Assembly: GCA_012295275.1 (NCBI GenBank)
Contig: CM022679.1
Coordinates: 13,392,001-13,456,000, forward strand
Origin: Chrysomallon squamiferum
Taxonomy: Eukaryota > Animalia > Mollusca
DNA length: 64,000 bases
Direction: 5' to 3'
Shown here: positions 7,933-41,600 of the stretch, piece by piece
How positions within the stretch are numbered: the first letter of the stretch is position 1
Layout of the letters: each line of letters opens with the position of its first letter
Made by a program: the position numbers and the translations under genes
Notes under the pieces: generated by a model
What the model saw: only the letters and a program-made list of their open reading frames with translations
Databases searched by the model: none
Told to the model about the DNA's origin: nothing

Positions 7933-8018
<86 letters not shown>
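7933..8018. repeat. (GA)n microsatellite, representative of many (GA)n, (TA)n, (TG)n, (AAT)n and (ATAC)n tracts in the window
   Basis: Seen directly. The paralogous tract at ~21839-21882 is shorter. Confidence 0.95.
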
Positions 8019-8021
<3 letters not shown>

Positions 8022-8728: not shown

Positions 8729-8916
8729 ATGAAGGGAGGTAGTTTGTTTTTCGTTTTTCTCCTCATCTTTTCGATGGACAGTGTTAAAGGAGTGGGTAAG
8801 TACACTAATCTGACATCTAGACGTTTTAATATTAGCATAATTACACAAGCGTACAGTAATAGCGTTTTTTTTAATCTGTGTGCTCTATCAACATGTATTA
8901 TTTGTAATAAAATATG

Positions 8917-8980
<64 letters not shown>

Positions 8981-9379
8981 ATAGATTTAAAACAAATATT
9001 TTACTCATCCATTACCTTATTAATATCTACAACACAAATAACACAGCAATTATACGGCTGTGATATTATAATTTAAAAATATTCCAAAACTACTATTCGC
9101 TACATTACAAATTAGTTAATAAAAATTAGTAACACTTATCTGTCTGCACTCTGATTGTTTTACAATGAAATATGACATTAAAAAAACAACAACAATGATT
9201 TAAAAACTGAACAAATTTTTTAACAGGAACTAAATAAAAAAAATATATATATGAAAAGCTTAATAATAAAAATGTATATTTAATAATAGTAATAATAGAT
9301 ACATACTTACAACATACATACACATATATACATACGTACTTTGTAACCCATATAAATACATATATTCATACATATATGC

Positions 9380-9411
<32 letters not shown>

Positions 9412-9412
9412 G

Positions 9413-9444
<32 letters not shown>

Positions 9445-12400: not shown

Positions 12401-12472
12401 ACAGAGACGCTTTTGTAATTATAAATAAGTGTTTGTAACGGAGATAAAAGCAAAAAGTCATAACGGGTAGAA

Positions 12473-12522
<50 letters not shown>

Positions 12523-13841: not shown

Positions 13842-13880
<39 letters not shown>

Positions 13881-14568
13881 AAGAAAAGATAAATAACAAA
13901 CAAACAGACATGCATACAATTTCTAAATTTAATGGGTAACATTATAACATTTTCAGGTATGCTAAGCAATAATCATTCATTAATTTAGGTGCGCTGCAAG
14001 ACTGTTCAGTCCGAGGATGTTTGTATTAATCAGCAAACTTCAAAAGCTTGTCAGACACAACCTCAGTCGTAAGTTATTTGAATATATAATTATAGTGTGT
14101 TAAAAAAGATATAGTAACAGATGTAACACACACACACACACACACACATTAAAAAAGATATAGTAACAGATGTAATATATATACAGACACACACACACAC
14201 ACAAACACACAGACAGATATATCTGTGGGTGTCTTATCTATATCAGAGTGTAAGTCCATGCTTGCTGGCGTCTTTTAAAAGGATATATTAGAACTAAAAC
14301 AGATTCAAGATAATTTCTGTTAATATGAAATTAATCACATTTGGTATTCTTATATGGAATAATTATCTTCATGTTCATCGTCATTATCATCACCATCTTA
14401 AAACAATTATCCTTATAATCCTAAATATATTTTATGAATGATCTCATAATAATTTATTAACTTACCTATTTATTAAAATTAATTATTGTAATAAATGAAA
14501 GAGTTGCTATAAATATCCTTTTTAATCATACTTTATATCGTCAAAAGTATCACGAATAAAAAGGTTTG

Positions 14569-14604
<36 letters not shown>

Positions 14605-17600
14605 TATTTATTTGATTAGTTAATTAGAAATGTTGATAATTATAATTAATTAGAACTGTTGATAATTACGTAGAGAAAATGAAGGTAATTTACTCGTTTG
14701 ACGAACCACGGGAAGGACATATGCCAGATTCCGCGTCACTTCGAACTGAAGGTCGGCTGGTCAAACTGGAGCTTAGCAGCAGCAACACCGTAGACAACGT
14801 CAAAATTCTGAGTAAGCTGGCTCTTTGTGCCGATGCAGATTACGTCAGAAATGAAGGTGAGTGTAATTTTAAAGTAAATGTCTATAATAATACAGTCAAA
14901 ACTCCGTTAACCGAACATCAATTTTCCAAACAAAATTTTAAGGTCCATAGATAACATATGCATTGAATTCAGTTTATATATTTATTTATTTATTTATTTA
15001 TTTATAATAATATTGTTTATTTTTTCCCGTAGATGTATGTTACTGAATATGCATTTCATTCTTTAATTAAATAGGTTTACATTCACGGAAGATGTAAGTT
15101 GTCTGTTAGGTATAAGTATGTTTGTTGAAATCTAAGCTGTCTCTCTGTGATAGTGTTAGTAAAAAGAAAGAATGGTTATCTGTACAAGATAATGTAAGTG
15201 TTTTATTTAGAAGACAGAGAGGTTTTAAAAAATAGTGTTAGTGTGTTAGAATGTTAGCGAGAGGTCAATGCAGTGGTCTTACACCATCCCAGTTAGCTCT
15301 GTTATTATTATTGTTGTTGTTGTTGTCGTTATTGTTTTTGTTTTATTATTATTATTGATGTATGTATAAATGTATATAAATTAGGATTTATTGTATATGA
15401 ATATCATCATTCTCCTGCTTTAACATACTTAATTACAAATAATTTGTTGTAAATTAAGGTACCAGCATTCTGGTAGCAGTAAGAAAAGCCTGTTCGAAAT
15501 GTTTGAAACTGGAGTATCCTAAATCTTCTGTGTTGATCGTTTTACCCCCGTTCTCAAAAAACAACATCTACAAATTACCTTTATACATGGAGGAAAAGAA
15601 AACACCTCTCATCGACCCGGATGGACAGGTAAATACACAGGTGTGGATACCAGACCACAAGTGAATGTTTAGTGTGAGAGATTTTGAAATAAAAAAACTG
15701 AATTTCCAAAAGTTGATATTAAACTGGCTTTAATAAATCATTGTGAAAAAAAAAAAAAAAAAAGTTATGAACAAGTTAATTCGTAATCAATAAATAGAAA
15801 TTAAACACCTTATTTATATGAGCCATAACTTTTGAAAAAATAAGTAATTATCGATAAAAGTAATGATCGCTATTGTTGCTGACATTAGGTTCGTTGTAGT
15901 AGTAACAGTAGCAGCGTCAGCTGTATTATTAATATATTTTTATAATATATATTAATTAAATAAATATACTGAAACAAATCCAGATGCGTTCGTTTTCAAA
16001 GAGAGATACCCATTCTTCTCATGTTTTTTTATTATTGTATTTGTCCCTTTTCTGAAGGAAGATCTAGAGATTGCCGAGGATGCTACACTGGGGATGTTTA
16101 AATCAAAAGATTCTGTTTATCGATACATGCGGCTTCATGCAAGAATAGCCATGTGTTATTCCGCAGTGTTCAACAAACTGAACAAATGGAAAAACGAAGA
16201 AGGTAAGAATTAGAAATATTACAGTTTTTTTCGCGTGTTTACAGTATGGGATCATAGTCTTCAGGTTCTCGGGATAGGTTTGGCAGTTTTGTTTAATGGT
16301 GTCTACGAATATTTAAATGTTGCCTGGTTATGAGCTTATTACTTATCAAACCAACTGTTTTATACATACCACACAAACATATATACACAATCATACATAT
16401 GTACATACATACAAACATATACACACACATACAGACATACATGTATTCATTCATCCATGCATTTATTTATTCATACATACATACATACATACTTACATAT
16501 ATACATACATACATATATCGTGTTGTTTTATTTATTTTTATTTAATGTTATGTTTATTATTTATTTTATTTTATTTGCTAGTGAAAATCTGTATTTTTGC
16601 CATTCAGTCAGATACCTTTAAGGATAGAACGATAGCCAGCACATTGTAGTCATTTTCTGCTGCTTTGTTTGACAAGAATATTTACAAACAGATTTAATAT
16701 GCCTTCTACCCTTACAGACAAAGTTAAGATTGAAATCGTCAACGCGTACATGACCAACCAAGAACAAGCACTGAAAATAGATCCGATGGATCAGCGTTAT
16801 AACAAGTTTTCTAGTGGTACTGGCTTCGAAATGAAATTTTTGGTGTCAGACCTGAATTCCACGACGATCGTCAAAGATTCGTTGCTGTTATTGCTGCTTA
16901 CGGTTGTGGATATGTGTGGACCATTGTTCCACGATTCTTCAAACTCTTTAGGAGCCGGGCTTTACAAAGACAAGGTTTTCGTTTGTCTGCAAGACACGTT
17001 TGATTTCTGGACGGACGATAAGAATCTGATACCAGATGGCTTGAGCCTTGATTCGTTCAGGGAAAAGATGAACAAAAGATTTGTTCTGGCTTCACGTAAG
17101 TGTGTAAAAATATTTAGTGCATTCGATTAATTAAAATGTTGAGTTATTGATTAATACAGTTTAATGTCAGAGATTAATACCCTTTTAAGTTCCGAATATG
17201 AAAACGCTTACAAATATCATCTTCCAAAAACTAATGAATTAACAATTAAAACGATATATGTGTTTGTGGGAGTCTGTACCAGTGCAAGCATGCAAACGCA
17301 TTGTATACGTTTTATTGCGAACGTGTGTATGCATATTTACGTATTTCAAATGCATGCATGTATATCATACAGGGATGTATGTGCGAATACATGCATGCAT
17401 AAACATAGAGATAGATATCTTTATCATTAATACTTTATCATTGATATTTACAGAAAATCGACTGGTTGACCCAGATAATCTTGAAATAGCTTGCAATAAT
17501 GCAGACCCTCCCGCTCTTCAGTCAGTTGATTTCAGTCACGTGCATTCCCCCGGTGCGGTGTCAAGCCCTAACACGTGTCCCCTCTAGTGAAAGCCAGTTC

Positions 17601-19353
17601 TGCAAAGACACCGAGGCGATCAGACGCATGCACATCAAAGTGATGTTAAAAGAACTGGATCGCAAATGGTTATATCATGAGAGAAAGGAGTTCCTAAACC
17701 CTCTGGAGAAGTGTTTCTTGACGTGCGGAACGTGCATGGATGGTACGTTTTAGTTAACAGTCGCTGTTGGTGTTGTTGCTATTAATACTTATATTTAACA
17801 TGCTGAACATGCGTGGGTGGAACGTTTTGGGTAACGTCACAGCTGGTGTCGGTGTTGTTGCTATTAATACTTATATTTAACATCCTGAACTAATGCACAC
17901 ATACACATTAAACTAAGAAATATTTATTTATTTATTTATTTATTTATTTATTTCCTTTTTTTTTTTTTTTTTTTAAATGCCGGAACTTATATTTTATTTT
18001 TATTATTATTTCTTGTCAGTGGACTACTGAAATGTGAAGGACATGGGCTTCTGGAAGGTAATTAGTTCAATTTTGTTTTATTTAATATTTCAGGATTTAT
18101 TTGGGAAGACAAGACAGAAAGCTGCAACAACTTTATGCACTGGGCTCCTTTTGAACGAGAACGAAATCTCAAATATCTTTCCCAGACACAACGCCAATCT
18201 CCGCAGACTTGCCAGTCAGCATGGGCACACAAAGACAGTCCATTGTTTCATCTTATTTGTACGTGTAGTTTATTATATGTTATTGTGTCAGTGACAGCAA
18301 CAGCACAGTATAAATAGTCAGTGATTAGTGAGGAGTATTGTAGTCTAGCTAATCGTGTCACTGGGGATTTTCTATTATGAGCAACTCATTAGGACAGATG
18401 ACCCTCTTTAAAAATTTTGTATCAATAATATCTAGGGTTACCGTAGTTTCATCAACCAAAGACAGTACAAAAGGAATCTATATTTACTATGACGGTCCCA
18501 GATCTATCTACACGTTTTTATTTATTCCTCCTTCCAAGTCAAGTTTAAAAACGCTATAACATACCCTCGCTCAAGAACGATCTTGCAACCCCCAGGTTGA
18601 AAACCCTATAAACTAGAAAATTAAAATCAAAGTGAAGATAAAAACAAAATATTTTCATTTAGTCTGATATTAATTTGTTTCTTTCTTAAACACAGTGGCA
18701 CCCGTGTACCATTTAAAAAGTTGCGGGCGATTCTCAATACACAGTTCAGCCTCAACAGTTTCATGTTTTGAATTTCTACTCTCTCTCTTTCTTCTTTTTT
18801 TTTTTGTTTTTATCATTCACAGTCAACACAGTCGGAGCTACATACAGACCTAACCCAATGGAGTGTGTTCAGGAGGATCTCTACTTGCAGTGAAACAACC
18901 CAAGTCCTGCTCTCAAGTTACTCCTGTTATTTTGTATTCACGCCGCTGGGTCAAAGATGAAACAGACATGGTTTCTCTGTATAAAGCTTATAAGGTATCT
19001 CTCTCTCTCTCTCTCTTTGAGGAAATGTAAACTTGATGACAAGTTTATCAAAGACTGTGATATCTACTTTTCTGATAATAGGAAGGTGTATATTATGGAT
19101 CATTTCAGCTAGGCTGAAACAAATATCTTATAACAAGAATATTTTGTCTTCTTTTTAACTACAGATATTATGACATGTATTTGAATTAAAAATAAGTGAC
19201 GTGTTCCATTAAAATTAATATTTATTCCAAAAAAAAAACAATGATAGTTTTTAGTAATTTGTTACGTGGTGTAACAAAAATGTCACTGATGTCGTAAATG
19301 GACTGGTCAGCAAACCCATTTATAGCTGAAAGCACTGCTCACAGATTGCCATT
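8729..19353 (+). pseudogene. Truncated, decaying copy of the Hedge/M15-domain gene (exons 1-16; exon 17 absent)
   Basis: Exons at 8729-8795, 9836-9928, 10374-10537, 10894-11067, 11507-11669, 12143-12287, 12685-~12808, 13989-14068, 14674-14856, 15459-15628, 16058-16202, 16718-17095, 17454-17742, 18094-18258, 18823-18993 and ~19261-19353. Lesions versus copy 2: exon-7 donor lost; 2-nt deletion at ~17574; 8-nt and net 4-nt deletions in exon 14; TCA>TGA at 18891; exon-16 acceptor deleted. Confidence 0.9.
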
Positions 19354-19594
19354 GAAAGAGTGCCAAGTCCTGAGCAGTCTCGCGGACCAATCTCTGGAAT
19401 GGCAACTTTATGATCAGCAATTCTGTAGATTTCTGATACCATCTGATTTCTCTCATAGTACCACGCCTGTAACGATGGAGTTTCTTCACTCTTCTAGTAG
19501 ATGGTGCATTCTTTCTTGCTGCCTTTGTTGCCAGTTGCTTCCGTGGAGCTTTACCTCCAGTAGATTTACGTGCAGTCTGCTTAGTACGAGCCAT
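19307..19594 (-). pseudogene. 3'-truncated H3.3 duplicate with an open chimeric ORF (95 aa)
   Basis: H3 residues 1-77 with S28N, G33R, G34R, P38L, P43R, VAL46-48>M, R53W, R63I and I74T, followed by [19 protein letters not shown] read from the junction and antisense exon 16. Most of the histone fold is missing. Confidence 0.85.
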
Positions 19595-20695
19595 AATTCA
19601 ACTTGTCCTGTATCATTATTTAAAAAAAAAAAAAAAATTAGTTTCTATCTTGGCATATGATGTGAACAATTTATGTAACAATCATCTGGTTTTACTTTAG
19701 CAAGTTGTAAATAAACTTGAAACAGATGAAACCATAAAATGCTAGTTGGATATCTTCCCAATACTAAATATGTATAAATACAGGGGTACATGGAATACCA
19801 TAGCATATATATTAAACAAAAATATTTATCTAGCAACAGACGAAATTATATAATTTAGCTGATGTACTTTCTTCCCTTAAGTTGGTTTCAGGTATCGTAG
19901 ATAAGTAATATTCCGTATTCAGAGCAAGAGTGAGATTGGCAACAGCTATTGCACAATACAGTCGATACAATTTACTCCTAAGATCCAAAAACAGTAACCT
20001 AAATCGTAACTTTAAATGGATTTTATATGTTATTTCAACGGATTTTCTTGCATTTAGTAATGTAAACTCTAGGATACTTGTATAGTTACTAATAAAGCCA
20101 ATCCGTAAAGTTAATGCTAACAACTGCCTAATTTTCTTTACAATCTGGAAAATTGGAATTCACATTAATAACATTACACGAAACTATCTTAAGAAATTAC
20201 GTTTTTAGTCTAAAAGTTACAAAAATACTTCACATTACGTACAAGATTTAAGTGTGACGTACCAAGAGTTCGACTGTCAATAACGATCAGTGAAACACCG
20301 TCATATATTGCTTACAATTTATGTTTACATACACCGATACGTGTAAAATCATTATTGGATATATAACTACGCAGACGTTTACAAACTTATGTTAACTTAT
20401 TTCAACTTGAAAAGATTTATATTTCTGTTACATAGATTTATACATCGACACTTAAAAATGTTCCGGTAACAATGGCGCCTTTCTCAAGTCTTCCGTCACC
20501 CATACATACACCGACTCATATTCAAAAATATATCGATCCGTGTGAAATAACATATAATTCTAATGTTACTTTATAGTTTTATATCGTTGATTTAGAACAT
20601 TTAACTCAGTATTAGGTTTTGGAATTAGGTTAACTCACCTTCTAGAGTTTAACAATTTCAAAATTTACCGCAAAAATCGCAACGAACTATGGTAT

Positions 20696-20745
20696 GGTAT
20701 AGAAAAGTCTTTTTACGTGCCCACGTCCAATTCAAGGTTCGTATA
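20696..20745 (-). mobile_element. ~49-bp insertion in the duplicated H3.3 promoter, probably a 5'-truncated retroposon 3' end
   Basis: Absent from copy 1 (ggtatatttag at 6551). Positions 20708-20741 are the exact reverse complement of 20956-20989. Confidence 0.5.
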
Positions 20746-20947
20746 TTTAGCTCGGTGGTTTAGTTTTTGTTTCATTGGTTTTGGTTTTGAGAAAGTGATC
20801 TGAGCTGATTGGTTACAATCTCTGTGATTGTATTGGTCCATTTCTATAAAGTACATGAAGTGATTGGACAAAAATACTCTGTTTTCATTGGTCAATTCTC
20901 AATTTCTTTAGCAAAGTGCTTCTTTACTGTATTCCCTGGCCTCTACT

Positions 20948-21006
20948 TTAGTGCCCGAACCTTGAATTGGACGTGGGCACGTAAAAAGAGTTCTCCATCC
21001 ATCCAT
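20948..21006 (+). mobile_element. 59-bp insertion with (CCAT)n tail and 13-bp target-site duplication; SINE/LINE-like 3' fragment
   Basis: cctggcctctact is duplicated at 20935-20947 and 21007-21019 but single in copy 1 (~6745). The insert ends in ccatccatccat. Confidence 0.6.
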
Positions 21007-21703
21007 CCTGGCCTCTACTATGCTGGGAGAGAGATTGCAAAAATAGATTTCTGATTTCGGGTTCGCTCGATAAATTCCGTAGCCAATCCCGTAGTAATGA
21101 AAAGTTCGCAAGGGCAGATAACTTAAATATGATGACATAAGAATTAAAAATAACTGTTTACTAATAAGCTTATTGCGAAATATAACATTCACAGAGGTAA
21201 TGTAGTGTATACAGAACTTGTCTCATTAATAAACAACTTTCTGTTGTTCAGACTTTAAAAAGATTATCATAAAAACATTAAAAATGTACGTCATGTTTTG
21301 AACATTAAAACTGAAAGTTTAAAAATAATAAATAAATAAATAAATAAATGTAAAGATGTAAATAAAAGTGGCCTATACAGTAATCTGAATAAGGGAAACT
21401 CGGTGAAAGTGTGGCAGAGAATAAAAGGAATTCGATTTTGTGACAATAAAACCGCTAACGATATATTAAATGTAATGACTGTAGCAGTTCCGATTGGGGA
21501 AAGTTAACGAACTAAAGCAGCGTTATTGTTTTAAATACTATTGTAAAATGTTAAAAACATATGGCAGTGCGATTGTCTCCATCTTGTCACAAAAAATCCG
21601 TGTTACGAGCGACATTCCAATACGCAGTCGCTAGCTGGCGCAACGAACAACAGAACATAATAGTTCCATCCTCTAAATCACAATACGATATGAAATAACA
21701 ATA

Positions 21704-21755
<52 letters not shown>

Positions 21756-21835
21756 TCATATAAGAGATGTATACGTGGAGACATTTTCTCTTTACCGTGA
21801 CGTCATTTTGTAGACCTACAGGAAATGGAGAATTC

Positions 21836-21885
<50 letters not shown>

Positions 21886-22625
21886 TATGACAAATCATTT
21901 ATTTATTAAATATTCACAGGTGTTAAAGAAAATAACCATATCGGTGATAACTTACTTTTCACTGATTGTTATTGACTGTAAGAGAAATTAATTTTAAAAA
22001 CTCTTTTCATTTTAATTATTTACTTTTTTTCACATTATTGTTTGTTATTAGTAGTAGTAGTATTACTACTGCTACACTTCTACATATGTTATTATTGTAT
22101 TTCAGAATGATTTTATTGTTGTTATTGTAGCTTTGCTGTTGTTATTGTCATTGTTGTTGGTGTTATCATTGCATCTGCGTTAATTACATAAAGAACCTCA
22201 ATTTTTCTTTATTTATTTAGTTATTTGTTTATTTATTTATTTTATTTATATTTTTATTGCTGGTAGTGCGTACGTGTGACAAAATTTTGACGTAAACATG
22301 ACCAGTAAAATTAATTTCTTGTACATAAACATAAAGTACGCAAAACAAATTTACTACATTTGTGAATGTCTCAGAATTACTCATTCTTTGTTTTCTAAAT
22401 AACAAGTTTCGACCTGCCGTTTATTTACGTCTGATTGCCTCAGTATCTGACGGACCGTAACTGACCGTTCATTATAAGTTCATTCTTATTCTTCTGATCC
22501 TTTGTACAGTTATATAGATCTCATGTTAACGTATACCTTTACTCAAGGTCCGGACAGGTCCGGTTATGCATGATTAAGTCTATATAGCTGGACATCGTCC
22601 ATTTTGTACACAGTAACTGAACAAA

Positions 22626-22818
22626 ATGAAGGGAGGTAGTTTGTTTTTCGTTTTCCTCCTCATCTTTTCGATGAACAGTGTTAAAGGAGTGGGTAAGTAC
22701 ACTAATCTGACATCTAGACGTTTTAATATTAGCATAATTACACAAACATATAGTAATAGCGTTTTTTTTTTTTTAATCTGTGTGCTCTATCAACATGTAT
22801 TATTTGTAATAAAATATG

Positions 22819-22882
<64 letters not shown>

Positions 22883-23292
22883 ATAGATTTAAAACAAATA
22901 CTTTACTCATCCATTACCTTATTAACATCTACAACACAAATAACACAGCAATTATACGGCTGTGACATTAGAATTTAAAAATATCCCAAAACTACTATTC
23001 GCTACATTACAAATTAGTTAATAAAAATTAGTAACACTTATCTGTCTGCACTCTGATTGTTTTACAGTGAAATATGACATTAAAAAAAACAACAACAATG
23101 ATTTAAAAACTGAACAAATTTTTTAACAGGAACTAAATAAAAAATATATATATATGAAAAGCTTAATAATAAAAATGTATATTTAATAATAGTAATAATA
23201 GATACATAATACAACATACATACACATACGTACGTTGTAACCCATATACACGTATATTCATACATACATGCATACATATATGCATATCTATA

Positions 23293-23325
<33 letters not shown>

Positions 23326-26149
23326 ATATATACACACACACACACAAACACACACATGTATTATGCGTAGACAGACAGACAAACAAACATACAAACAGAC
23401 AGACAGATAGATAGATAGATAGACAAACACAAATAACATGCATACACGTATACATATACATATAAATATACACTAATAAAGACAAAAACATGCATTCACA
23501 CGTACAGACATACACACATATAAAAATGTACATTCGTACACAGACACCGCTTTTCATTTTCGTATATAAATTTCAGACACCTTAGAAACTATTATTAAAA
23601 TAACATGTAGTTATGCTTTATTATTTATTTATTTATTCATTGATTCATTGATTTATTGATTTATTGATTTATTCATTATTATTATTTGTTTATTATTATA
23701 AATGTTTGTGTTTTTTTTTTTTTGTGTGCAGATGTCCTATTTCCTTCAGGAGTCACCTTGTCATCAGTAGATTCAGAAATCATCCAGGATAACGATCCCC
23801 GATACGCTGACCCTCTGAATACAGGTTGGAATTATATCATATTATGATTCTGTCCTAACCACATCGTATGTTACCAGTCATCAGAAGCATCATGGGTAGA
23901 ATTCTGTATCTTAGTCGGTGATATTTTTGGCTATCATACTTTATGTGTGGCACTTATCATATATCTATTTCTATAACTAAGAAAGGATTTTACCTCATTT
24001 CAGATCGACAATAAAATGTTTACATTAATTTGCTGTCAATATATAAGTTTAATTTGCTTATGAAAAGTTATTGTATGGAATAATTATTACATCCACTTTA
24101 ACATTTTTTTACTTCGTAAATAAAATAATTATTGATTTTATATATATATATATATATTTTAAAGAGAGAGAGAGAAGACAATGAACATTCTTATTTCGTT
24201 TCTAATTTCGCGTTCCGATCAATTTAAAAAACACTATATAAATAAAAAAGAGGAGTAATTTCTTTTTTTTTTTTTTTTTTTTTTTGGGTTTCCAGGAACT
24301 TACATATTTGATTCCAAGGGTATCGAAATGGACAGATTGGCTCTAACTGTTCTTGTCAGTCATTTCAAGGCACAGAACGAACGATACTTCCGAGCTCATC
24401 CAGTTCTAATTAAATGTGCTGACAAAATCATGTTGGATCTTGGAAACCAAGACAAACAGGTAAATACAACAGGAATGGATGCTTATAAACCACTGCGGTT
24501 TATACAAAACAGGAATTCTACAATTTACGCTTACAAAAATCACTGAAACTGATACAAGACTGTAATGGAGCATACAACATAATCAAACACTCTTTATTTC
24601 TCCAAAGACACTTTTTTTTATCATTCAGATATTTATTTTTCAATTACATTTTTTTTTTTTTTACTGCAGCAGTATTTATCCTTAACTCGTTTTATTCACT
24701 TACTAATCGAGATTTTTTACTTGTTTAAAAAAGCCCAAGAAAGCCTCTTTCTTTTTCCCACTTACCAGTCAGGATTTGCGACTTGTCTAGGTAACAAAAC
24801 ACTTCAAAATTTCAGATAAGAATTTTCAGCGGTTACATCCCAAGGTCGGAGATAGGTTCCAGCAAAACTGTTCAGGATCTTTATGCTGCGGCTGGATGTG
24901 CAGTTCAGTTGATGTTTCGACCTGAAGTCGTCGGAGATGTACTTTTAATTGCCCAGGCAGCACTTAAACACTGTCCGCTCATTTTTGAGGTAACTGACAA
25001 AAAAAAATAAAAAAATACTATGCCTTTGTTTTGCCACGCTATTGTTGTAATAGGCAACATTATTATCAGTTTATATGTAAAACCTAATAGATGCTTTTAA
25101 TTATCAGTGCTTAATATTTAACACACGTTTAATCATTAATTTGGCGATTAATATCCACTTATTTTTTTAATCATCAGACGTTGAATGTTGAACTGTTTTT
25201 ACTTTAATTGTCATTAATTGTATTGTGAAAAAAAGTGTTTACGTCATTAACGAATAAATGAGACGTTAAATGTTCAACTGTTTTTACTTTAATTGTCATT
25301 AATTGTATTGTGAAAAAAAGTGCTTACGTCATTAGCGAATAAATGAATTTTATTATCACAGCCTGGGGGTTTCCTGGGCCCAGGGACCTATGCAATACAT
25401 GTGTGATGTGGCTTGCTCTCGATAAATTAATCGTTGTTGTAAATATTGGGTGCATTGTTTTGTCCAAGGACCTATATTGATATTAGATGGCCGTAACTGA
25501 CGTTAGTTCATAATACATACTGAGCTTTAATGTTATTTTATTTCACAGAGATTTCAGCGCGACCTCGGTCTCGTTCTGATGGTAGATCGTCTGCACATTC
25601 ATATGACTGAAGCAGGCGGAAATGGAATGTATCTAGGTATTGATGGATACTCATGGAATCAAGTAGACACATTCGAAAACTGGTCTTTACAGCAAATTGA
25701 CATCGGCTTAGGTAAATGTTAGAATTTGATATATATCCTGGATTTGATACTTAATAAAGCTGCATGTCCATTTGCAGTGTTTTATATATATGCCATAGTA
25801 ATGTTGGTAGTCGTAATTATATTATTCATTCATTCATTCATTTGTTCGTTTTTATTTTATTTGCGTTATTATTATTTTTTAAATTAAAGTGGGATTCCTC
25901 TCAATCATTTGTTTATGCGTTTATTTCGAAAATATATACTGTTTTCTAAACTTAGCAATTTTATCTTTAATATTATTTGTATTTAATATCTTTCTTTCTT
26001 TCTATTTATTTATTGTTGCTGTTATTATTATTATTTATTTATTTATTATTATTATTATTACTATTATTATTTATAATTATTTATTTATTTATTTTATTAT
26101 ATTTATATACATACATACATATATATATATTCAGATATATATATTCACA

Positions 26150-26180
<31 letters not shown>

Positions 26181-26983
26181 TTTTCATTAATGACCAAACA
26201 GAATATATTTTTTCATTACAGATTCTAATAAAGTGGACACATGTTCTTCGTTCGTGGGACTCGAGGTGGGTGGTGTTTACCCACCAGGCAGCGCGTCCTC
26301 CCCCGAAGCAGTCGTGGGCAGGGTTGATGAACCCATCACACGAAATAACCCCGAAGATTTTAGTCTGTAAATTACTATTTTAAAAACAACATCAACATCA
26401 TTTTATCATTCTTTTAAGTTGTTTATTTCTATTAGCTGCACAATGTATTAAGATCAGAATATTTTGTTTAGAAAACTACAGAGACGCTTTTGTAATTATA
26501 AATAAGTTTTTGTAACGGAGATAAAAGCAAAAAGTCATAACTGGTAGAATAATGTGTGCGTGCGTGCGTTTGTGTGCGCGTGTGTGTGTGTGTAAATTTA
26601 TTGCACTTAAAGAAATAAAATTACGTCTCCTATCCTTTGTGTCGTGTAATTTAAATATGTTTACTTAACAACAATGCAAATTATGAGGGCATGCTAGCTG
26701 TAACTGAATTAATGCATACTGTTTTCAGAACAAATTTATTAATATATTATTTCTTACAGTCTGGTCCAGTATGTTGGGCGAGATATTGAATTTGAAAATG
26801 AAGAACGAACCTCGTCATGGTGTGGACTAGAAGGTAACCCATGTCATGACTGCAGAAGTCAGCCGAACGGAAATTCACTGACTAAAAGGTAATGTAACAA
26901 GCGTTTAGATTTTTTATTTTTTATTTATTTATTTATTTTTGGTTGGTTTTTAATTGTATTTATTTATTTATTGTTTGTTTGTT

Positions 26984-27027
<44 letters not shown>

Positions 27028-27545
27028 GACGCCATTTTCACTGTTTTTTATTTTTTTTTGTTTTTTTTTTTTTTTTTTTCTTTTTTGTTTTGTTTTATCA
27101 ATCTGTATAAACAGATCTATATTGTTTTGTCCTTTTTGGTTTTGGTTTTTCTGTTAAATACATGCAGGTTATATTCACCACATAACGATGACTATTATAA
27201 TGTTTTCTAAAATCCAGGAATCTATAATAACGTCAAACAAATTCAAATTTACAGGCAATACTTGTAATAAAATGATTTTTTATTTTAGCAGTACATACCG
27301 AAGTACCATTGATTTTAATTTAAATCTTATAATAAACTGCAGTATGTTAACAGAACACATTAACCAATGCTATTTTGTATTCAGTTTAAAAAAAAAAAAA
27401 GTTTATGCTTATCACGTATGTAGCTCATAATATGCAAGTTATTATTAGTCAGGGGACCTTCACACTGATGTTTAGAATTTCAATATACGACGGAGAATAA
27501 AACAAAATAATAATAATATAAAATAAATACATAAATAAATATATA

Positions 27546-27589
<44 letters not shown>

Positions 27590-27605
27590 TAACAATAACA
27601 ATAAA

Positions 27606-27636
<31 letters not shown>

Positions 27637-27951
27637 GTATAATATTATAAAACGACATGTAAGTTACTGTTTGAAATGTAATTAGAATATGATTCTTTAG
27701 CTAATTTAATAACGTGAAATACATTCTTGTGAGTGTAGGGTGTGTGACTAATGGGAGGTTACCGCATGTAGTTCTCTGTGCACCGCCCATTTCGAAATTC
27801 ATTCGAAGCTATTATCCGTTAATGCCAGTTCTCAAAAGGCCTTGATATGTTGTTGTTTTTTTATTACCTAAGTGAAAATGCATTTAAAATTTTAATCTGT
27901 ATCAAATGCATTAATCATGATCCCTGTTCACTGTATCACAGTTATTTAAAA

Positions 27952-27982
<31 letters not shown>

Positions 27983-28418
27983 AAAATAAAATAAAAATAA
28001 AATAAATAAATATATAAATAAATAAAGAAAAGAAAAGATAAATAACAAACAAACAGACATGCATACAATTTCTAAATTTAATGGGTAACATTATAACATT
28101 TTCAGGTATGCTAAGCAAACTTTAATAATCATTCATTAATTTAGGTGCGCTGCACGACTGTTCAGTCCGAGGATGTTTGTATTAATCAGAAAACTTCAAA
28201 AGCTTGTCAGACACAACCTCAGTCGTAAGTTATTTGAATATATAATTATAGTGTGTTAAAAAAGATATAGTAACAGATGTAATATATATATATATATATA
28301 TATATATACTTACCTAGTTATTAAAATTAATTATTGTAATATGAGAAAGAGTTGCTATAAATATCCTTTTATCATACTTTATATCGTCAAAAGTATCATG
28401 AGTAAAAAAGTATGTTTG

Positions 28419-28453
<35 letters not shown>

Positions 28454-28457
28454 CATC

Positions 28458-28488
<31 letters not shown>

Positions 28489-31400
28489 GATTAGTTATTT
28501 AGAAATGTTGATAATTATAATTAATTAGAACTGTTGATAATTACGTAGAGAAAATGAAGGTAATTTACTCGTTTGACGAACCACGGGAAGGACATATGCC
28601 AGATTCCGCGTCACTTCGAACTGAAGGTCGGCTGGTCAAACTGGAGCTTAGCAGCAGCAACACCGTAGACAACGTCAAAATTCTGAGTAAGCTGGCTCTT
28701 TGTGCCGATGCAGATTACGTCAGAAATGAAGGTGAGTGTAATTTTAAAGTAAATGTCTATAATAATACAATCAAAACTCGGTTAACCGAACATCAATTTT
28801 CCAAACAAAATTTTAAGGTCCATAGATAACATATGCATTGAATTCAGTTTATATATTTATTTATTTATTTATTTATAATAATATTGTTTATTTTTTCCCG
28901 TAGATGTATGTTACTGAATATGCATTTCATTCTTTAATTAAATAGGTTTACATTCATGGAAGATATAAGTTATCTGTTAGGTATAAGTACGTTTGTTGAA
29001 ATCTAAGCTGTCTGTCTATGATAGTGTTAGTAAAAACAAAGAATAGTTATATGTACAAGATACTGTAAGTGTTTTATTTAGAAGACAGAGAGGTTGTAAA
29101 AAATAGTGTTAGTATGTTAGAATGTTAGCGAGAGGTCAATGCAGTGGTCTTACACCATCCCAGTTAGCTCTGTTATTATTATTATTGTTGTTGTTCTCGT
29201 TATTGTTATTGTTTTATTATTATTATTAATGTATGTATAAATGTATATAAATTAGGATTTATTGTATATGAATATCATCATTCTCCTGCTTTAACATACT
29301 TAATTACAAATAATTTGTTGTAAATTAAGGTACCAGCATTCTGGTAGCAGTAAGAAAAGCCTGTTTGAAATGTTTGAAACTGGAGTATCCTAAATCTTCT
29401 GTGTTGATCGTTTTACCCCCGTTCTCAAAAAACAACATCTACAAATTACCTTTATACATGGAGGAAAAGAAAACACCTCTCATCGACCCGGATGGACAGG
29501 TAAATACACAGGTGTGGATACCAGACCACAAGTGAATGTTTAGTGTGAGAGATTTTGAAATAAAAAACTGAATTTCCAAAAGTTGATATAAACTGGCTTT
29601 AATAAATCATTGTGAAAAAAAAACAACAAAAAAAACAAAACAAATGTTATGAACAAGTTAATTCGTAATCAATAAATAGAAATTAAACACCTTATTTATA
29701 TGAGCCATAACTTTTGAAAAAATAAGTAATTATCGATAAAAGTAATGATTAGGTTCGTTGTAGTAGTAACAGTAGCAGCGTCAGCTGTATTATTAATATA
29801 TTTTTATAATATATATTAATTAAATAAATATACTGAAACAAATCCAGATGCGTTCGTTTTCAAAGAGAGATACCCATTCGTATCATGTTATTTTTATTAT
29901 TGTATTTGTTCCTTTTCTGAAGGAAGATCTAGAGATTGCCGAGGATGCTACACTGGGGATGTTTAAATCAAAAGATTCTGTTTATCGATACATGCGGCTT
30001 CATGCAAGAATAGCCATGTGTTATTCCGCAGTGTTCAACAAACTGAACAAATGGAAAAACGAAGAAGGTAAGAATTAGAAATATTACACTTTGTTCGCGT
30101 GTTTACAGTATGTTATCATAGTCTTCAGGTTCTCGGGATAGGTTTGGCAGTTTTGTTTAATGGTGTCTAAGAATATTTAAATGTTGCCTGGTTATGAGCT
30201 TATTACTTATCAAACCAACTGTTTTATACATACCACACATACATATATACACAATCATACATATGAACATATATACATACATATACTAACACATACAAAC
30301 ATACATACACATACAGACATATATGTATTCATTCATCCATGCATTCATTCATTCATACATACATACATACATACATACTTACATATATACATACATACAT
30401 ATATCGTGTTGTTTTATTTATTTTTATTTAATGTTATGTTTATTATTTATTTTATTTTATTTGCTAGTGATGATGAAAGAGAAAATCTGTATTTTTGCTA
30501 ATCAGTCAGATACCTTTAAGGATAGAACGATAGCCAGCACATTGTAGTCATTTTCTGCTTTTTTGTTTGACAAGAATATTTACAAACAGATTTAATATGC
30601 CTTCTACCCTTACAGACAAAGTTAAGATTGAAATCGTCAACGCGTACATGACCAACCAAGAACAAGCACTGAAAATAGATCCGATGGATCAGCGTTATAA
30701 CAAGTTTTCTAGTGGTACTGGCTTCGAAATGAAATTTTTGGTGTCAGACCTGAATTCCACGACGATCGTCAAAGATTCGTTGCTGTTATTGCTGCTTACG
30801 GTTGTGGATATGTGTGGACCATTGTTCCACGATTCTTCAAACTCTATAGGAGCCGGGCTTTACAAAGACAAGGTTTTCGTTTGTCTACAAGACACGTTTG
30901 ATTTCTGGACGGACGATAAGAATCTGATACCAGATGGCTTGAGCCTTGATTTGTTCAGGGAAAAGATGAACAAAAGATTTGTTCTGGCTTCACGTAAGTG
31001 TGTAAAAATATTTAGTGCATTCGATTAATTGCGTTATTAATTAATACAGTTTAATGTCAGAGATTAATACCCTTTTAAGTTCCGAATAAGAATAATATTC
31101 AAAGCTGAAAACCCTTATAAATATCATTTTCCAAAAACTAATGAATTGACAATTAAAACGATATATGTGTGTTGTGGGAGTCTGCACCAGTGAAAGCATG
31201 CAAACGCATTGCATACGTTTTTATTGCAAACGTGTGTATGCATATTTACGTATTTCAAATGCATGCATGTATATCATACAGGGATGTATGTGCGAATACA
31301 TGCATGCATAAACATAGAGATAGATATCTTTATCATTAATACTTTATCATTGATATTTACAGAAAATCGACTGGTTGACCCAGATAATCTTGAAATAGCT

Positions 31401-31854
31401 TGCAATAATGCAGACCCTCCCGCTCTTCAGTCAGTTGATTTCAGTCACGTGCATTCCCCCGGTGCGGTGTCAAGCCCTAACACATGTGTCCCCTCTAGTG
31501 AAAGCCAGTTCTGCAAAGACACCGAGGCGATCAGACGCATGCACATCAAAGTGATGTTAAAAGAACTGGATCGCAAATGGTTATATCATGAGAGAAAGGA
31601 GTTCCTAAACTCTCTGGAGAAGTGTTTCTTGACGTGCGGAACGTGCATGGATGGTACGTTTTAGTTAACAGTCGCTGTTGGTGTTGTTGCTATTAATACT
31701 TATATTTAACATGCTGAACATGCATGGATGGAACGTTTTGGATAACAGTCAGTGTTGCAAATATTATTATCAATACTTATATGTACTTGTTTGGACTATA
31801 CATCATTAGTGCACACATATAGATTAAAAAAATACTCATTAAACTAAGAAATAT

Positions 31855-31897
<43 letters not shown>

Positions 31898-32966
31898 TTT
31901 CCTTTTTTCTTTTTTTCTTTTTAAATGCTGGAAATAGATTCGTTACTTATATTTTATTTTCATTATTGTTATTTCTTGTCAGTGGACTACTAAAATGTAA
32001 AGGGCATGGACTTCTGGAAGGTAATTAATTTAATTTTTTTTTTTTTTTTTTTTTTTTTGATATTTCAGGATTTATTTGGGAAGACAAGACAGAAAGCTGC
32101 AACAACTTTATGCACTGGGCTCCTTTTGAACTTCTGAATGAGAACGAAATCTCAAATATCTTTCCCAGAGACAACGCCAATCTCCGCAGACTTGCCAGTC
32201 AGCATGGTCACACGATCGAGGACAGTCCATTGTTTCATCTTGTTTGTACGTGTAGTTTATTATGTGTTGTTGTGTCTGTGACAGACTCGAAGCAACAGCA
32301 CAGTACAAATAGTCAGCGATTAGTGAGAAGTATTGTAGTGTAGCTAATCGTGTCACTGGGGACGTTTTTTTTTTTTTTTTTTAATCTACGTTTGGAAAAT
32401 AAGAAAAACAAATGACATTTTCTCTAAATGAATGACATAGATATCTGGATAATAAGACTGTTTATATTCGCGTTGTGATAACGATAACAAAGACCGCAGT
32501 GTTTGCTGTAGTGATTTGTAAGATATTATTGTAACAAATAACTGCAACACTGGTTTTCAACCTTTTTCATACTGCGACCCCTTATGAGCAACTCAATAGG
32601 ACCGATGACCCCTTTAAAAATTTTATCAATAATATCTAGGGTTACCATAGTTTCATCAACCAAAGACAGTACAAAAGGAATCTATATTTACTGTGACGGG
32701 TCCCAAACATTACTGCACGTTTTTATTTATTCCTCCTTCACAGTCAAGTTGAAAAAAGCTAAATCCCCACAAAAAAGGCTGGCGACCCCCAGGTTGAAAA
32801 CCTATGAACTAGAATATTAAAATCAAAGTAAAGATAAAAACAAAATATTTTCATTTGATCTGATATTAAATTTTTCCTTCCTTACACACAGTGGCACCCG
32901 TGTACAATTTAAAAAGTTGCGGGCGATTCTCAATACACAGTTCAGCCTTAACAGTTTCACGTTTTG

Positions 32967-33028
<62 letters not shown>

Positions 33029-33311
33029 AAAAATTTATCATTCACAGTCAACACAGTCGGAGCTACATACAGACTCTCTCTCTCTCTCTCTCTTTTTTAT
33101 TTTTTTTTATCATTCACAGTCAACACAGTCGGAGCTACATACAGACCTAACCCAATGGAGAGTGTTCAGGAGGATCTCTATTCGCAGTCAAACAACCCGA
33201 GTCCTGTTCTCGAATTACTCCTGCAGTTGTTTTGTATTCACGCCGTTGGAACTGTTAATTTTTGGGTCAAAGATGAAACAGACGTGGTTTCTCTGTATAA
33301 AGCTTACAAGG

Positions 33312-33387
<76 letters not shown>

Positions 33388-34172
33388 AAGTCTATACAAG
33401 ACTGAAGACCTGTACGCAGCTTAGTGGTGGAGTCTAGGATTGAGGCACGATTGGTCGCCAGATCAATCCTCATCAGTACTCTCTTTGAAGAAATGTAAAC
33501 TTGATGACTAGTTTATCAAAGACTGTGATACGTACTTTTCTGATAACAGGAAGGTGTATATTATTGATCATTTCAGCTAGGCTGAAACGAGTATCTTATA
33601 ACAAGAATATTTGGTCTTCTTTTTAACCACAGATATTATGCCATGTATTTGTATTAAAAATATGTGGAGTGTTCCATTAAAAATAATATTTATTTATACA
33701 AAAAAAATACAAAACAATGTTGATAGTTTTTAGCAATTTGTTTTCAGGTTGTTATGTTGTATAACAAAAATGTCACTGATGTCCACACGTATGTCGTAAA
33801 TGAAGCCAGTCTTGAATCTGTTGAAGCGGTCATCGAAAACTTCGTAATGGACTGGTCAGCAAATTCGTGTCCGCTGTATACAAGAGAGTTTATAGCTGAA
33901 AGCACTGTTCACAGAGTGCCATTTGGTATGTAGTGTTTTATTATTAACTTACTACTACTACTACAGTTATTATTCTTGTTCTAATTGTTGTTGTTATTAT
34001 TATTGTTGAAATTTAAAAACATAATAGGAACTTCTTTCTTTATATTTGTATCAAATTAGGGAATATAGCATTTCACAATTGGAGGAATACTTTTTAATGG
34101 TATGCAATTTGAAATTGCAAGAGGAGCCTGTATTCGAATCAAAACAAAAAACCGACCAGCCTTTTCCAAATG

Positions 34173-34207
<35 letters not shown>

Positions 34208-34376
34208 CATAATTAAATGAAATTAAAACAAATTTGACATACTTCATAACATGAATTTCCTAATTAAATTTCTTTTTTTAGATATTGTAAAGCGATCTGA
34301 CCAATCGGCTGTTCGCGAGGACATCATCAACTACTACAACGGCTGGGAACATCGCTGGGTCAGCCAAGATTTGTAA
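22626..34376 (+). CDS. Uncharacterised 940-aa secreted protein: signal peptide, peptidase-M15-like domain, Hedgehog N-terminal (Hedge)-like domain, second M15-like domain, Cys-containing C-terminal region
   Basis: 17 exons, all GT-AG and phase-compatible, 2823 nt with no internal stop: 22626-22692, 23732-23824, 24296-24459, 24816-24989, 25549-25711, 26222-26366, 26760-26888, 28145-28224, 28549-28731, 29330-29499, 29923-30067, 30616-30993, 31363-31653, 32069-32245, 33120-33310, 33748-33925, 34282-34376. The N-terminus MKGGSLFFVFLLIFSMNSVKG is signal-peptide-like. Hedge motifs: GRVDEPITRN, DIEFENEE, AARLFSPR, SFDE, SLRTEGRLV, LSKLALCADADYV. Confidence 0.88.
32548..32806. mobile_element. hAT-type MITE in intron 14 (~259 bp); copy 1 keeps only the right part (~18377-18610)
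   Basis: Ends cactggttttcaacct / aggttgaaaacctatg (14/16 inverted match, resembling Charlie-type CAGTGGTTCTCAAC termini). Degenerate 8-bp flanks aactgcaa / aactagaa. Confidence 0.65.
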
Positions 34377-38693: not shown

Positions 38694-41600
38694 TTAAACA
38701 TAAAATTTTCGTTTTTTCCTAATTGTCAGACCTTTTCCAAACCAGCCTGGCACTGAGGTTCGTTTCTTGGCTTGCAGGACAGCTGGCTTGTCTTCAGTTG
38801 CTTCTCCAGTAGTTTCTACCTGTATGTCATCCACAGAACAACTGGACCCTGGGTTTTCAGAATCACCGGGGTGAGTATTTGATGATGAAAGTGAGTGTGC
38901 AGAGATCACTGTCTGAGGTAAAACAGGTGCACAGTTGCACTTGTCCTCATTTGTGTTGTCCGAGTATTCAGCAGTTTTGGCATCTTGTGTTACCGACATC
39001 CTTTGCACATCCTGAATGTGATTGGAAGAAAAGCTAGAACCATTTGTTACTGAATTCCTTGCCGTTGAGAGATCGAGAGCATGTTCTTGCAGAGCATCGT
39101 CACATCTTCCTTCATCATTTTCATCCTTAAGTGAATCTTTGTCATTCACACAGTCCCTGTTACATATATGATCTTTGTTTTTATCTCCAAGATTAACTTT
39201 TACACTGTTTGTTTGTTTTGGAATATCGACCTGAAGCTGGAAGTTGCCTGCAAGTTTAGCATCGTGGACAGGCCTCATTACAAGAAATGCTGGCTGAAAC
39301 GAGCCCAGTCCACAAGGAAACAACGTGCTTCCAGGCGGGCAGTTGGAGATGTGGATGCCGTTGGTCTTAAAGTCTTTTTTCACTCTGTCCGTGGTGGAGA
39401 TCACTCCAGTCAGCAGTTTGATGCTTTCCCTCGTCCTGCCGTTCTCTTCCTGAGGTACTGGGGAGTTGAGCAATGTTTTTATGACGGAAAACGGCTCGTC
39501 AGAGGGAGTTTTCTTTTTCACACAAGATTTGTCACCTGAAACTGTCTCCTGTTTATACTTGTCCGTATGGTTCCTGTTTACCCGTACATTCTGTGCATAG
39601 CCGTTGGGTACCTGAAGAATTTTGTTTGAGGTAGTTTTCTGCTCGTGTTTCTTTAAAGGCACGCTCATCTTGAAAATAGGATCCATAATCCTGAAAATAA
39701 ATATTTTAAATATTACATAAAACAAATGTGGTTGAAAGCAAATATATTTGTGTAGCTACATGTGTCTATGCCAAAACAAACTAAGTAAATATATAAAAAA
39801 ATGTTCTTCTTCTTCTAACTAAAATTAAATAATCAGTTAAAAGCATAAATGAAAGAATGAAAAATATCTTAACAATACCATATATGATTCTGTAGATTTT
39901 GAAAAAAAAAAAATCTAAATAAATAAAAAGAGAGAGAAAAGAAATACAAAAATGATAACAATGTATACAATTTTCTGGACATATATTGAAATATTTTTGT
40001 TTAAATTTAAAATTAAAAATATTTGCCTCTGATATGGATCAACCTCTAGTGAAAGATAATTCATCACTTGCAGCATTACATCATCACAACGACCTGAAAA
40101 TCAACAAAAATATTTTTCACTATCAAATCCCTCATAATCAGTAGGTAAAACATAACCAATTGACATTAATTTTATTTCACAAATAAATTAATTTGAGGAA
40201 AACAAATAATTCATGCCTGTCAATAAAATCAACAGGCATTAAAAAAAAAAATTATTTGGTGATATATTTGAATATTTAATAAACTACAGAAGTTTGATTA
40301 ACAAGAACAAAAATATATGATTTTACTATTTTAAGAGTTTCATGTTTGCGATTACCTCACAATACTTTTAACAATAACTAGTTATCAAATATATAAATAA
40401 AATAAAAAATAAAAAATATCTTATAGTTTTTAAGATTTTAAATGAAAAACTGTTTAAAAATAATTAATGAGTTTACCATTTATTTTTAAAGTGGCATTGT
40501 CATCCTTTGGTGTCCACTGCAAGTTGACAATGAAGAGTTTTGGTCTTTGTTGAACTTTTTTGTCCATGCACCACAAACATGCATATTTCTTCAACACCTG
40601 AAAACCAAAAGTAAATTCTTAAATCTTCATAGCATTGATGTTTTATACAGTTTTATGGGTTTGTGACATAAACATGCAGACAGGCTATACAATTTTTATT
40701 TTCATTTCTATAAGCACTTTATAAATCTGAAATCATAATCAGCTCTGCCAACAAGATACTGGCAAGCTGTGTATTTAAAAAACAAAAACAAAATTTAACA
40801 TCAGGACATTATTAATCCAAAATATTAAAAACTAACCTCAAATATTTAGAAAAAAAACAACAAAAGCACATTATTTTTATTCTTCTTAAATCCATAATTT
40901 CACATCATCAAAACAGATTATTAAAAAAAAATATATATATATATATAGATAATAAAAGAAAATAAAACAAGAAGGTATAGTGATATGATATATAAGATGG
41001 GATATATGTTATATAACATGATATGAAATGATACAATATATAATGCAACAGATTTTTTTTAATAAACTTACCTTAAGACTTGATCCCAGACAGAGAATCA
41101 GGTCTGCAGTGTTTGCTGCCTTCACTGCTCTTTTCCACCAGTACGGCGATCTCATGCCTCCCTTCTCACCGAAGTGGACGACAGTGTCCTTCAAAGCAGA
41201 ACTACACCGATGACATTTCCGTCCTGTCTTGTGTCGCCGCACTCCCGTCTTCTCTGTGACGTCAAAGAGTCTAACATACTCCTGTTGCGGCTTGCAGTTT
41301 GGACAAACCTTGAAACGTGAATTTTAAAAACATATTTTAAATATTACTTAACGTGATACAGTAAACAAAATTTAAAAAATTAGATTTATACTGAGTATTT
41401 CTGTGAATTTTTTTTTTAACAAATTTGTTTATTTTCTAAAGTATGTTATTCGGTTAAATGAATGAAATTTAACTTTTCAGCTTATTACTGATATAAGAAG
41501 AAAAAAAGAAATCTTTATTCTCCTGAATTAAATTAACTTTTACTATACCATAATAAAAAGTAAACAACAACTTCTGTTTAGAAATACTGTAACAACATCA

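Follow-up and report, generated by a model that had tools for sequence, protein, structure and literature searches.

The Hedglet gene of Chrysomallon squamiferum joins three Hedgehog/DD-peptidase folds to a predicted ADP-ribosyl cyclase-like domain

Domain architecture of the Hedglet protein

The gene described here lies in a window of 64,000 nucleotides from the mollusc Chrysomallon squamiferum (the whole stretch of DNA that was analysed; contig CM022679.1 of assembly GCA_012295275.1) and is a Hedglet. The encoded protein comprises three related Hedgehog/DD-peptidase folds in one chain, namely a Hedge domain (the N-terminal domain of Hedgehog, Hh) between two repeats of the peptidase M15A type, followed by a C-terminal domain with the predicted fold of ADP-ribosyl cyclases. 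All four enzyme-type domains are likely inactive according to their residues. While the Hedglet family has already been named, its architecture was hitherto undescribed; this architecture and the ancestry of the domains are held with high confidence and are far firmer than any reading of the function.

The gene comprises 17 exons with GT-AG borders on the forward strand (22626-34376), and its open frame of 940 amino acids starts with a hydrophobic, signal-peptide-like N-terminus. The model is colinear with LOC121380136 of Gigantopelta aegis (P0001, 940 amino acids) at 63% identity, the sole homolog retrieved by a word search with exon 13. A first search with P0001 yielded 10 matches among 7990 scored candidates, with orthologs from Patella, Lottia, Ridgeia, Asterias and Branchiostoma and two Logan proteins; the remaining full-length matches are 32-47% identical to the window protein. 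The region is AT-rich and of animal type, with introns rich in microsatellites. Bacterial contamination as the source of the gene was ruled out by the 16 spliceosomal introns and the animal orthologs. The features of the gene are as follows:

22626-22692, + strand: exon 1, with the start codon and an N-terminal hydrophobic stretch resembling a signal peptide; most full-length orthologs are hydrophobic there too (crude hydropathy rule)
23732-23824, + strand: exon 2, N-terminal extension in common with intact secreted M15A enzymes; profile alignment from residue 25
24296-25711, + strand: exons 3-5, coding for residues 55-188; repeat 1, with a dead fold of the peptidase M15A (Hedgehog/DD-peptidase) type
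26222-29364, + strand: exons 6-9 with the first part of exon 10, coding for residues 231-410; Hedge domain by PF01085 and ortholog model
29482-30905, + strand: last part of exon 10 with exons 11-12, coding for residues 449-601; repeat 2, again with a dead fold of the peptidase M15A type
31363-31478, + strand: linker in exon 13, place of an R-x-K/R-R convertase-type site in most relatives, absent here
31479-34283, + strand: exons 13-16, two-lobed ADP-ribosyl cyclase/CD38-like domain, residues 670-910, predicted inactive
34282-34376, + strand: exon 17, dibasic KR site, then a conserved helical tail of about 26 residues and the stop codon

PF01085 was found above its cut-off in all ten orthologs, while exon 9 alone stayed under it (E 0.002) and gave only chance ubiquitin rows against the sequences of the Protein Data Bank (PDB). 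In the model of the Gigantopelta ortholog, the Hedge domain (residues 232-410) matched the N-domains of Hh, Shh, Ihh and Dhh with Z-scores reaching 17.7-18.6 and extending down to 16. In contrast to Hedgehog, the Hedge domain of Hedglets contains a cysteine-rich insert, has lost its zinc ligands and is internal, starting at residue 231 instead of following the signal peptide. No Hint domain (Hog) comes after it, since the rest of the chain up to the stop codon is taken up by the second M15A repeat and the cyclase-like domain. Hedglets also differ from Hedgling, as neither a VWA nor a cadherin domain appeared in the Pfam lists of the ten orthologs and the 940 residues of the window protein are assigned otherwise.

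Hedglets were named in 2021 by Jagers and Roelink from the Hedge domain alone (PMC8052667). According to the accessible parts of that paper, the sequences were trimmed to the Hedge core of about 105 residues and predicted to be non-catalytic, their distribution over lophotrochozoans, amphioxus and echinoderms was termed enigmatic, and a descent from Hh was considered plausible. Its supplementary sequence list includes XP_009064322 (Lottia, our P0003) and XP_019614930 (Branchiostoma belcheri, our P0006), to which the full-length window protein is 46.5% and 36.2% identical, with identical domain order. Flanking M15A repeats, the cyclase-like domain and processing sites are not described for Hedglets in those parts. 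Among the papers searched, with subscription papers outside the search, the word "hedglet" is used in the work of Jagers and Roelink alone, and no printed report of the four-pseudo-enzyme architecture, the cyclase-like domain or the pre-animal age was found.

A preliminary description of this DNA had read exons 3-5 (24296-24459, 24816-24989 and 25549-25711) and exons 10-12 (29330-29499, 29923-30067 and 30616-30993, all on the + strand) as internal repeats. The borders of these exons are all GT-AG with agreeing phases, the peptides quoted for them are all present on this strand, and the repeat holds. Profiles built from the orthologs (repeat 1 from P0001 residues 55-195, repeat 2 from residues 450-605) aligned with an HHalign probability of 99.6, an E-value of 1.3e-23 and a score of 139, while 100 column shuffles reached a mean score of 12.3 and a maximum of 21.5. 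In the window protein, the hidden Markov model (HMM) of repeat 1 finds repeat 2 with 32.8 bits and that of repeat 2 finds repeat 1 with 41.8 bits.

The assignment to the M15A type is less direct. In the ten orthologs PF08291 did not match either repeat at the Pfam cut-off of 23.2 bits, and the rows located on the repeats were sub-threshold (PF08291 with E 0.13 in Asterias rubens, a MepK model with E 0.011 in Asterias amurensis). Weak PF08291 matches in three of the ten orthologs were rejected as support, since they fall on the Hedge domain. Therefore, intermediate sequences were needed for the link. The proteins P0119, P0130 and P0131 are intact PF08291 enzymes (E about 1e-15) with 30-35% identity to Hedglet repeat 1, and their profile scores 58.3 bits on repeat 1 and 19.6 bits on repeat 2 of the window protein, with no match on the Hedge domain and none on the reversed protein as control. 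This test is partly circular because the three proteins were found by a Hedglet profile, while their PF08291 score is independent. Additional alignments were based on a wider set, the best 150 of 943 matches (E up to 0.001) of a profile search against 1.84 billion representatives. Its 104 repeat copies aligned to eight MepK and phage M15 sequences with 96.6% HHalign probability, E 6.8e-10 and a score of 56 (shuffled maximum 16), and to 57 Hedge domains with a probability of 92.5 and a score of 44; the Hedge alignments reached a probability of merely 3-7 against the MepK and phage set.

The structural comparison points in the same direction. In an AlphaFold model of full-length P0001 (mean predicted local distance difference test (pLDDT) 75.9, predicted template modelling score (pTM) 0.47), repeat 1 (residues 30-214) matched the Streptomyces zinc DD-peptidase 1lbu with Z 9.8, a root-mean-square deviation (rmsd) of 2.7 and 116 aligned residues, and repeat 2 (residues 463-598, within the full model) matched the endolysin LysB4 6akv with a middling Z of 6.7. 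The pTM of 0.47 makes the packing of the domains in this model unreliable. Both repeats contain the ordered elements of peptidase M15A (PF08291; 1lbu; Escherichia coli MepK), including the final hairpin. Unlike this family, animal Hedglets have no complete zinc triad, comprise an extra cysteine pair and a helix insertion, and combine two copies in one chain.

These data demonstrate the M15A ancestry of both repeats. Together with the PF01085 match, the fold match to 1lbu, the profile of the PF08291 enzymes and the repeat alignment also bear out the earlier proposal of three related Hedgehog/DD-peptidase folds in one chain. The same description had called the flanking domains bacterial-type M15 and had expected PF08291 or a DD-peptidase fold for them. 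The M15A type and the fold stood, whereas PF08291 was never reached at the Pfam cut-off and the closest intact relatives, among the matches listed, appear to be secreted eukaryotic M15A enzymes rather than bacterial ones. Furthermore, the earlier reading had overlooked the C-terminal cyclase-like domain, and the family already has a name.

The proteins P0119, P0130 and P0131 likely represent a eukaryotic peptidoglycan hydrolase family. They are apparently secreted, single-domain M15A proteins with an intact zinc triad that carry the N-terminal extension and the cysteine-helix insert of Hedglets; in P0131 the enzyme is joined to a C-type lectin. Searches of PHROGs and of phages by tblastn gave no useful match, and no bacterial or archaeal genome contig encoding a relative was confirmed in 60 stretches examined with two patterns, a narrow test and not a proof of absence. 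With exon 12 alone, a word search retrieved no homolog and the Atlas yielded no credible match.

For the C-terminal 240 residues, neither a Pfam family (E up to 1) nor a solved cyclase of the PDB (HMMER, E up to 10) was matched, and an Atlas search returned sub-threshold rows only, from a poor model. In the structural comparison, the full P0001 model already matched CD38 in Foldseek with an E-value of 2.8e-5. Modelled alone, the domain of the ortholog reached a pLDDT of 84.8 and a pTM of 0.81, and all 38 listed Foldseek rows were CD38, with a best E-value of 4.3e-5. Among 48,161 chains, the best match was the Aplysia ADP-ribosyl cyclase 3zwm (Z 12.2, rmsd 4.0, 194 aligned residues), followed by BST-1 (CD157; Z 10.7) and CD38 (Z 9.7), the next row having a Z of 7.6. 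Since the match spans both lobes, the domain is predicted from the model to adopt the two-lobed ADP-ribosyl cyclase/CD38 fold. The predicted fold includes the N-terminal helical lobe, which is not present in the bacterial homologue 9ro8 (Z 7.4, 110 aligned). Compared to the known cyclases, the identity is low (10-16%) and the domain is placed behind three peptidase folds.

The cyclase-like domain is bordered by putative processing sites. An R-x-K/R-R convertase-type (furin-type) site precedes it in 16 of the 20 full-cassette animal members; the window protein, Gigantopelta, Asterias, P0026 and the sponge Oscarella do not contain it. A dibasic site with a short conserved tail follows the domain in 18 of the 20, and the sponge member has neither tail nor furin-type site. 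A marine-metagenome contig (L001, 147-1170) contains two exons of another Hedglet, with introns that by eye apparently match the exon 14/15 and 15/16 borders of the window gene.

State of the active sites

The zinc motif H-x6-D with a second histidine (Roelink 2018) was applied to all three peptidase folds. The full triad (H-D/E-H) was absent from every one of the three folds in the ten orthologs, which supports the earlier suggestion of a catalytically dead protein; by single repeats, it was present in 0 of 9 ortholog rows for repeat 1 and 0 of 10 for repeat 2. Repeat 1 retains the third zinc histidine alone, while the third ligand position of repeat 2 is occupied by phenylalanine in all ten orthologs. 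In the Hedge domain of the window protein the ligands are replaced by arginine, lysine and a hydrophobic residue.

In the wider set, four of the 104 repeat copies comprise a complete triad, namely repeat 1 of the full-cassette relative P0045 and the three single-domain PF08291 enzymes, and another 13 copies retain two of the three ligands. Intact zinc sites were observed in 4 of the 57 Hedge domains, all in proteins scoring as typical bacterial-type Hh, so that these four presumably represent bacterial-type Hh rather than Hedglets.

In cyclases, a glutamate and two tryptophans are named as critical (PMC1949048 and PMC2785692) and described as absolutely conserved (PMC1949048). By our mapping these key residues are mostly missing in Hedglets, and the cyclase-like domain is predicted to be inactive as well. 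With the register taken from CD38 numbering, the mapped glutamate position holds glutamate in 4 of 63 aligned sequences and lysine, arginine or glutamine in 52; in the ortholog set, glutamate occurs in 4 of 10 and tryptophan at either mapped tryptophan position in none. The window protein and its Gigantopelta ortholog lack the first histidine in both repeats and show lysine or arginine at the mapped glutamate position. Despite these losses the sequences are well conserved, as the mean pairwise identity of the four domains, in order, amounts to 37%, 47%, 38% and 48% between mollusc, annelid, echinoderm and amphioxus orthologs, and 18 cysteines are near-invariant. Identities of this size across four phyla support a strong constraint on the folds despite lost catalysis.

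Distribution, age and possible function

Names were looked up for 30 proteins (the 10 first matches and 20 of 147 new ones, 13 of these 20 with an organism given), so that the taxonomic range is a lower bound. Within it, the order repeat, Hedge, repeat and cyclase-like domain was found in molluscs including further bivalves, annelids including Owenia, echinoderms, amphioxus, a sponge and a choanoflagellate. The full cassette of the sponge Oscarella pearsei (P0033) follows trypsin and PLAT domains. That of the choanoflagellate Craspedida sp. UC1 (P0043) comes after C2 and Peptidase_M15_4 domains, the latter above its cut-off (E 3.4e-10). Versions with repeat and cyclase-like domain were found in Salpingoeca urceolata and Didymoeca costata; in the latter (P0061) the cyclase-like domain is split into two halves by a Peptidase_M23 domain (E 1.7e-7). 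In a quick tree of the cyclase-like domain with weak deep forks, P0043 clusters with three other proteins (support 98) apart from the groups of bilaterians, a placement that speaks against recent contamination; the tree of the repeats is based on few columns.

Since Hh is missing from sponges and protozoa (Roelink 2018), a cassette present in both a sponge and a choanoflagellate likely predates Hedgehog itself. These members argue against the published view that Hedglets derive from Hh, and in this respect the gene bears on the origin of Hedgehog, as the preliminary description had proposed. That origin is disputed between a route via Hedgling and the transfer of a bacterial peptidase (Roelink 2018). 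The exon-2 donor of Hh lies at the end of the Hedge domain (PMC8052667); it has no counterpart in the window gene, where the equivalent position falls inside exon 10, in line with a separate history of Hedglets. An expressed sequence tag (EST) of Oscarella with a Hedge domain and no following Hog or VWA, mentioned by Burglin 2008 (PMC2362128), may stem from the Oscarella Hedglet gene.

Several relatives show other arrangements. A second paralog group of about 1400 residues (P0034-P0040, P0044, P0047 and P0048), whose named members are molluscs (Sinanodonta, Batillaria, Saccostrea), mostly combines a pair of Hedge domains and a single repeat with the cyclase-like domain, the same basic site and the tail. 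Giant environmental proteins of 2700-4300 amino acids with internal hydrophobic segments (P0053, P0066, P0070, P0073, P0080 and P0081) have a repeat and the cyclase-like domain at their end, and several of them also match FN3, cadherin-like or TNFR domains. In P0096, two intact Hedge domains are combined with amidase, glucosaminidase, peptidoglycan-binding and DUF2272/CHAP-like domains in one chain; by its sequence this protein is a bacterial-type Hh whose partner domains clearly belong to a cell-wall hydrolase.

With a chance that we place somewhat below even, the Hedglet may act as a multivalent, non-catalytic, secreted binder of bacterial cell wall, and not as an enzyme or a Hedgehog-type ligand. 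It would have started as a multi-domain peptidoglycan hydrolase in a choanozoan ancestor. Its catalytic sites would then have decayed, with the clefts retained for multivalent binding, by which bacteria could be captured, sensed or handled on mucosal or feeding surfaces. The C-terminal tail would be removed by convertases. In most animals, though not in this snail, these would also cut off the cyclase-like domain, which could then be a non-catalytic partner or signal. An ancestral activity is supported by the complete triads in repeat 1 of P0045 and in the three PF08291 relatives, and a cell-wall context by the Peptidase_M15_4 domain of P0043 and the Peptidase_M23 domain of P0061.

Known proteins offer a partial parallel. 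According to PMC6339383, Rusticalin is likewise a secreted protein of a marine invertebrate, its Hedgehog/DD-peptidase fold has been traced to bacterial cell-wall enzymes, and a role in immunity was proposed. Unlike the Hedglet, it comprises about 270 residues with a defensin-like N-terminus and one Ply500-like domain with kept catalytic residues, and neither a Hedge nor a cyclase domain.

Several points weigh against a role in cell-wall binding. The catalytic positions of the cyclase-like domain were located via CD38 numbering and not via residue-level superposition. The structure models are those of the Gigantopelta ortholog, which stands in for the window protein. Conservation is highest in the Hedge and cyclase-like domains, which a pure cell-wall-binding role leaves unexplained. 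Moreover, a catalytically dead cleft of the Hedgehog/DD-peptidase type does not have to bind peptidoglycan; in Shh it serves for contacts with matrix and receptors (PMC8052667).

A different explanation, which we regard as possible but doubtful, is a pro-protein of signalling or matrix, in which the Hedge domain and the dead repeats would bind heparan-sulfate proteoglycans or Hedgehog co-receptors. Two messengers, the cyclase-like domain and a short peptide from the C-terminus, would be freed by convertases. The close match of the Hedge domain to the N-domains of Shh, Ihh and Dhh (Z 18), its place among the best conserved parts and the frequent processing sites are consistent with this explanation, and the teneurins, from which a dead toxin domain is released (PMC3482391 and PMC3417536), would be an analogous case. 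However, the protein has no Hint domain, and its internal Hedge domain does not offer the free N-terminal stretch that mediates Patched binding (PMC8052667); the sponge member has neither tail nor furin-type site, and the choanoflagellate relatives are joined to additional cell-wall hydrolase domains.

A residual or changed catalysis, either by a composite metal site of repeat 1 and repeat 2 or as NAD-consuming activity in glutamate-keeping lineages, is unlikely. Repeat 1 does retain its third histidine, repeat 2 often has the first histidine and an acidic second ligand, two of three ligands persist in the 13 copies mentioned above, and the mapped glutamate of four orthologs lies in a strongly conserved domain. 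These residues are patchy, however: the window protein and Gigantopelta have neither the first histidine in either repeat nor the mapped glutamate, the mapped glutamate column mostly holds lysine, arginine or glutamine, and no ortholog has a mapped tryptophan. A purely structural role, in which disulfide-stabilised modules would belong to a mucus, shell or basement-membrane protein with no ancestry-related ligand, appears about equally improbable. Secretion, the 18 near-invariant cysteines and the parallel decay of all catalytic sites would fit such a role, whereas the fixed order and length of the four domains in 20 animal members and the conservation of the processing sites point to a specific partner or ligand.

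Going beyond the binding of cell wall, and with clearly lower probability, Hedglets might be a third, pre-animal lineage of Hedge proteins alongside Hedgling and Hedgehog. Their cassette would have arisen by fusing cell-wall peptidases (M15A and Hedge) to an ADP-ribosyl cyclase, would have begun as an anti-bacterial or bacteria-digesting protein of choanozoans, and would have turned into a convertase-processed, bacteria-sensing pseudo-enzyme that releases the cyclase-like domain and a peptide as signals. If this is true, the Hedglet would document, in living species, how a peptidoglycan hydrolase turned into a Hedgehog-type ligand, and its C-terminal domain would be the first dead CD38-fold family followed back to choanoflagellates. 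Because the Hedge domain is fused here to its M15A cousins and to further cell-wall hydrolases, a peptidoglycan-enzyme ancestry becomes directly testable. In addition, the domain family of the predicted CD38 fold is large (63 aligned), unannotated and invisible to Pfam, and it joins two animal signalling folds believed to be separately derived from bacteria.

Gene copies, transcript and neighbouring genes

The window contains a tandem duplication of about 14 kb (5184-19263 versus 19365-33742, 87-97% identity), and the upstream unit carries a second copy of the gene:

8729-19263, + strand: upstream Hedglet copy, broken, duplicate of the intact gene

This copy has lost the donor of exon 7, comprises frameshifting deletions in exons 13, 14 and 15 and a stop in exon 15, and its exons 16-17 are unrecognisable. 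The upstream unit also includes an intact, intron-containing histone H3 gene (4780-5420, - strand), while the downstream unit contains a truncated and mutated H3 (19290-19600). The decay is thus opposite in the two units, with a broken Hedglet beside an intact H3 upstream and an intact Hedglet beside a decayed H3 downstream. Since the lesions measure 3-16 bases and the histones decayed in the opposite sense, a real duplication is favoured over an assembly artefact by two haplotypes in tandem.

Exons 1-5 were compared with RNA reads, in which one junction was covered, that of exons 4 and 5, by a single contig (run X3, depth 2.5) bridging a GT..AG intron. Since these two exons are identical in both gene copies, the contig cannot be assigned to the intact copy; by eye, its loose end corresponds to the exon 3 version of the upstream copy. 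The contig thus demonstrates splicing of the Hedglet gene, not of the intact copy specifically.

We take the residues of the intact histone gene to be of H3.3 type. The neighbouring exons at 41009-41323 (-), 46435-46749 (+), 48903-49277 (-), 60482-61597 (+) and about 3128-3497 (+) presumably belong to ordinary animal genes by their look and, by their motifs, resemble SIRT7-, METTL23-, FAM241-, FNIP- and C16orf91-like genes.

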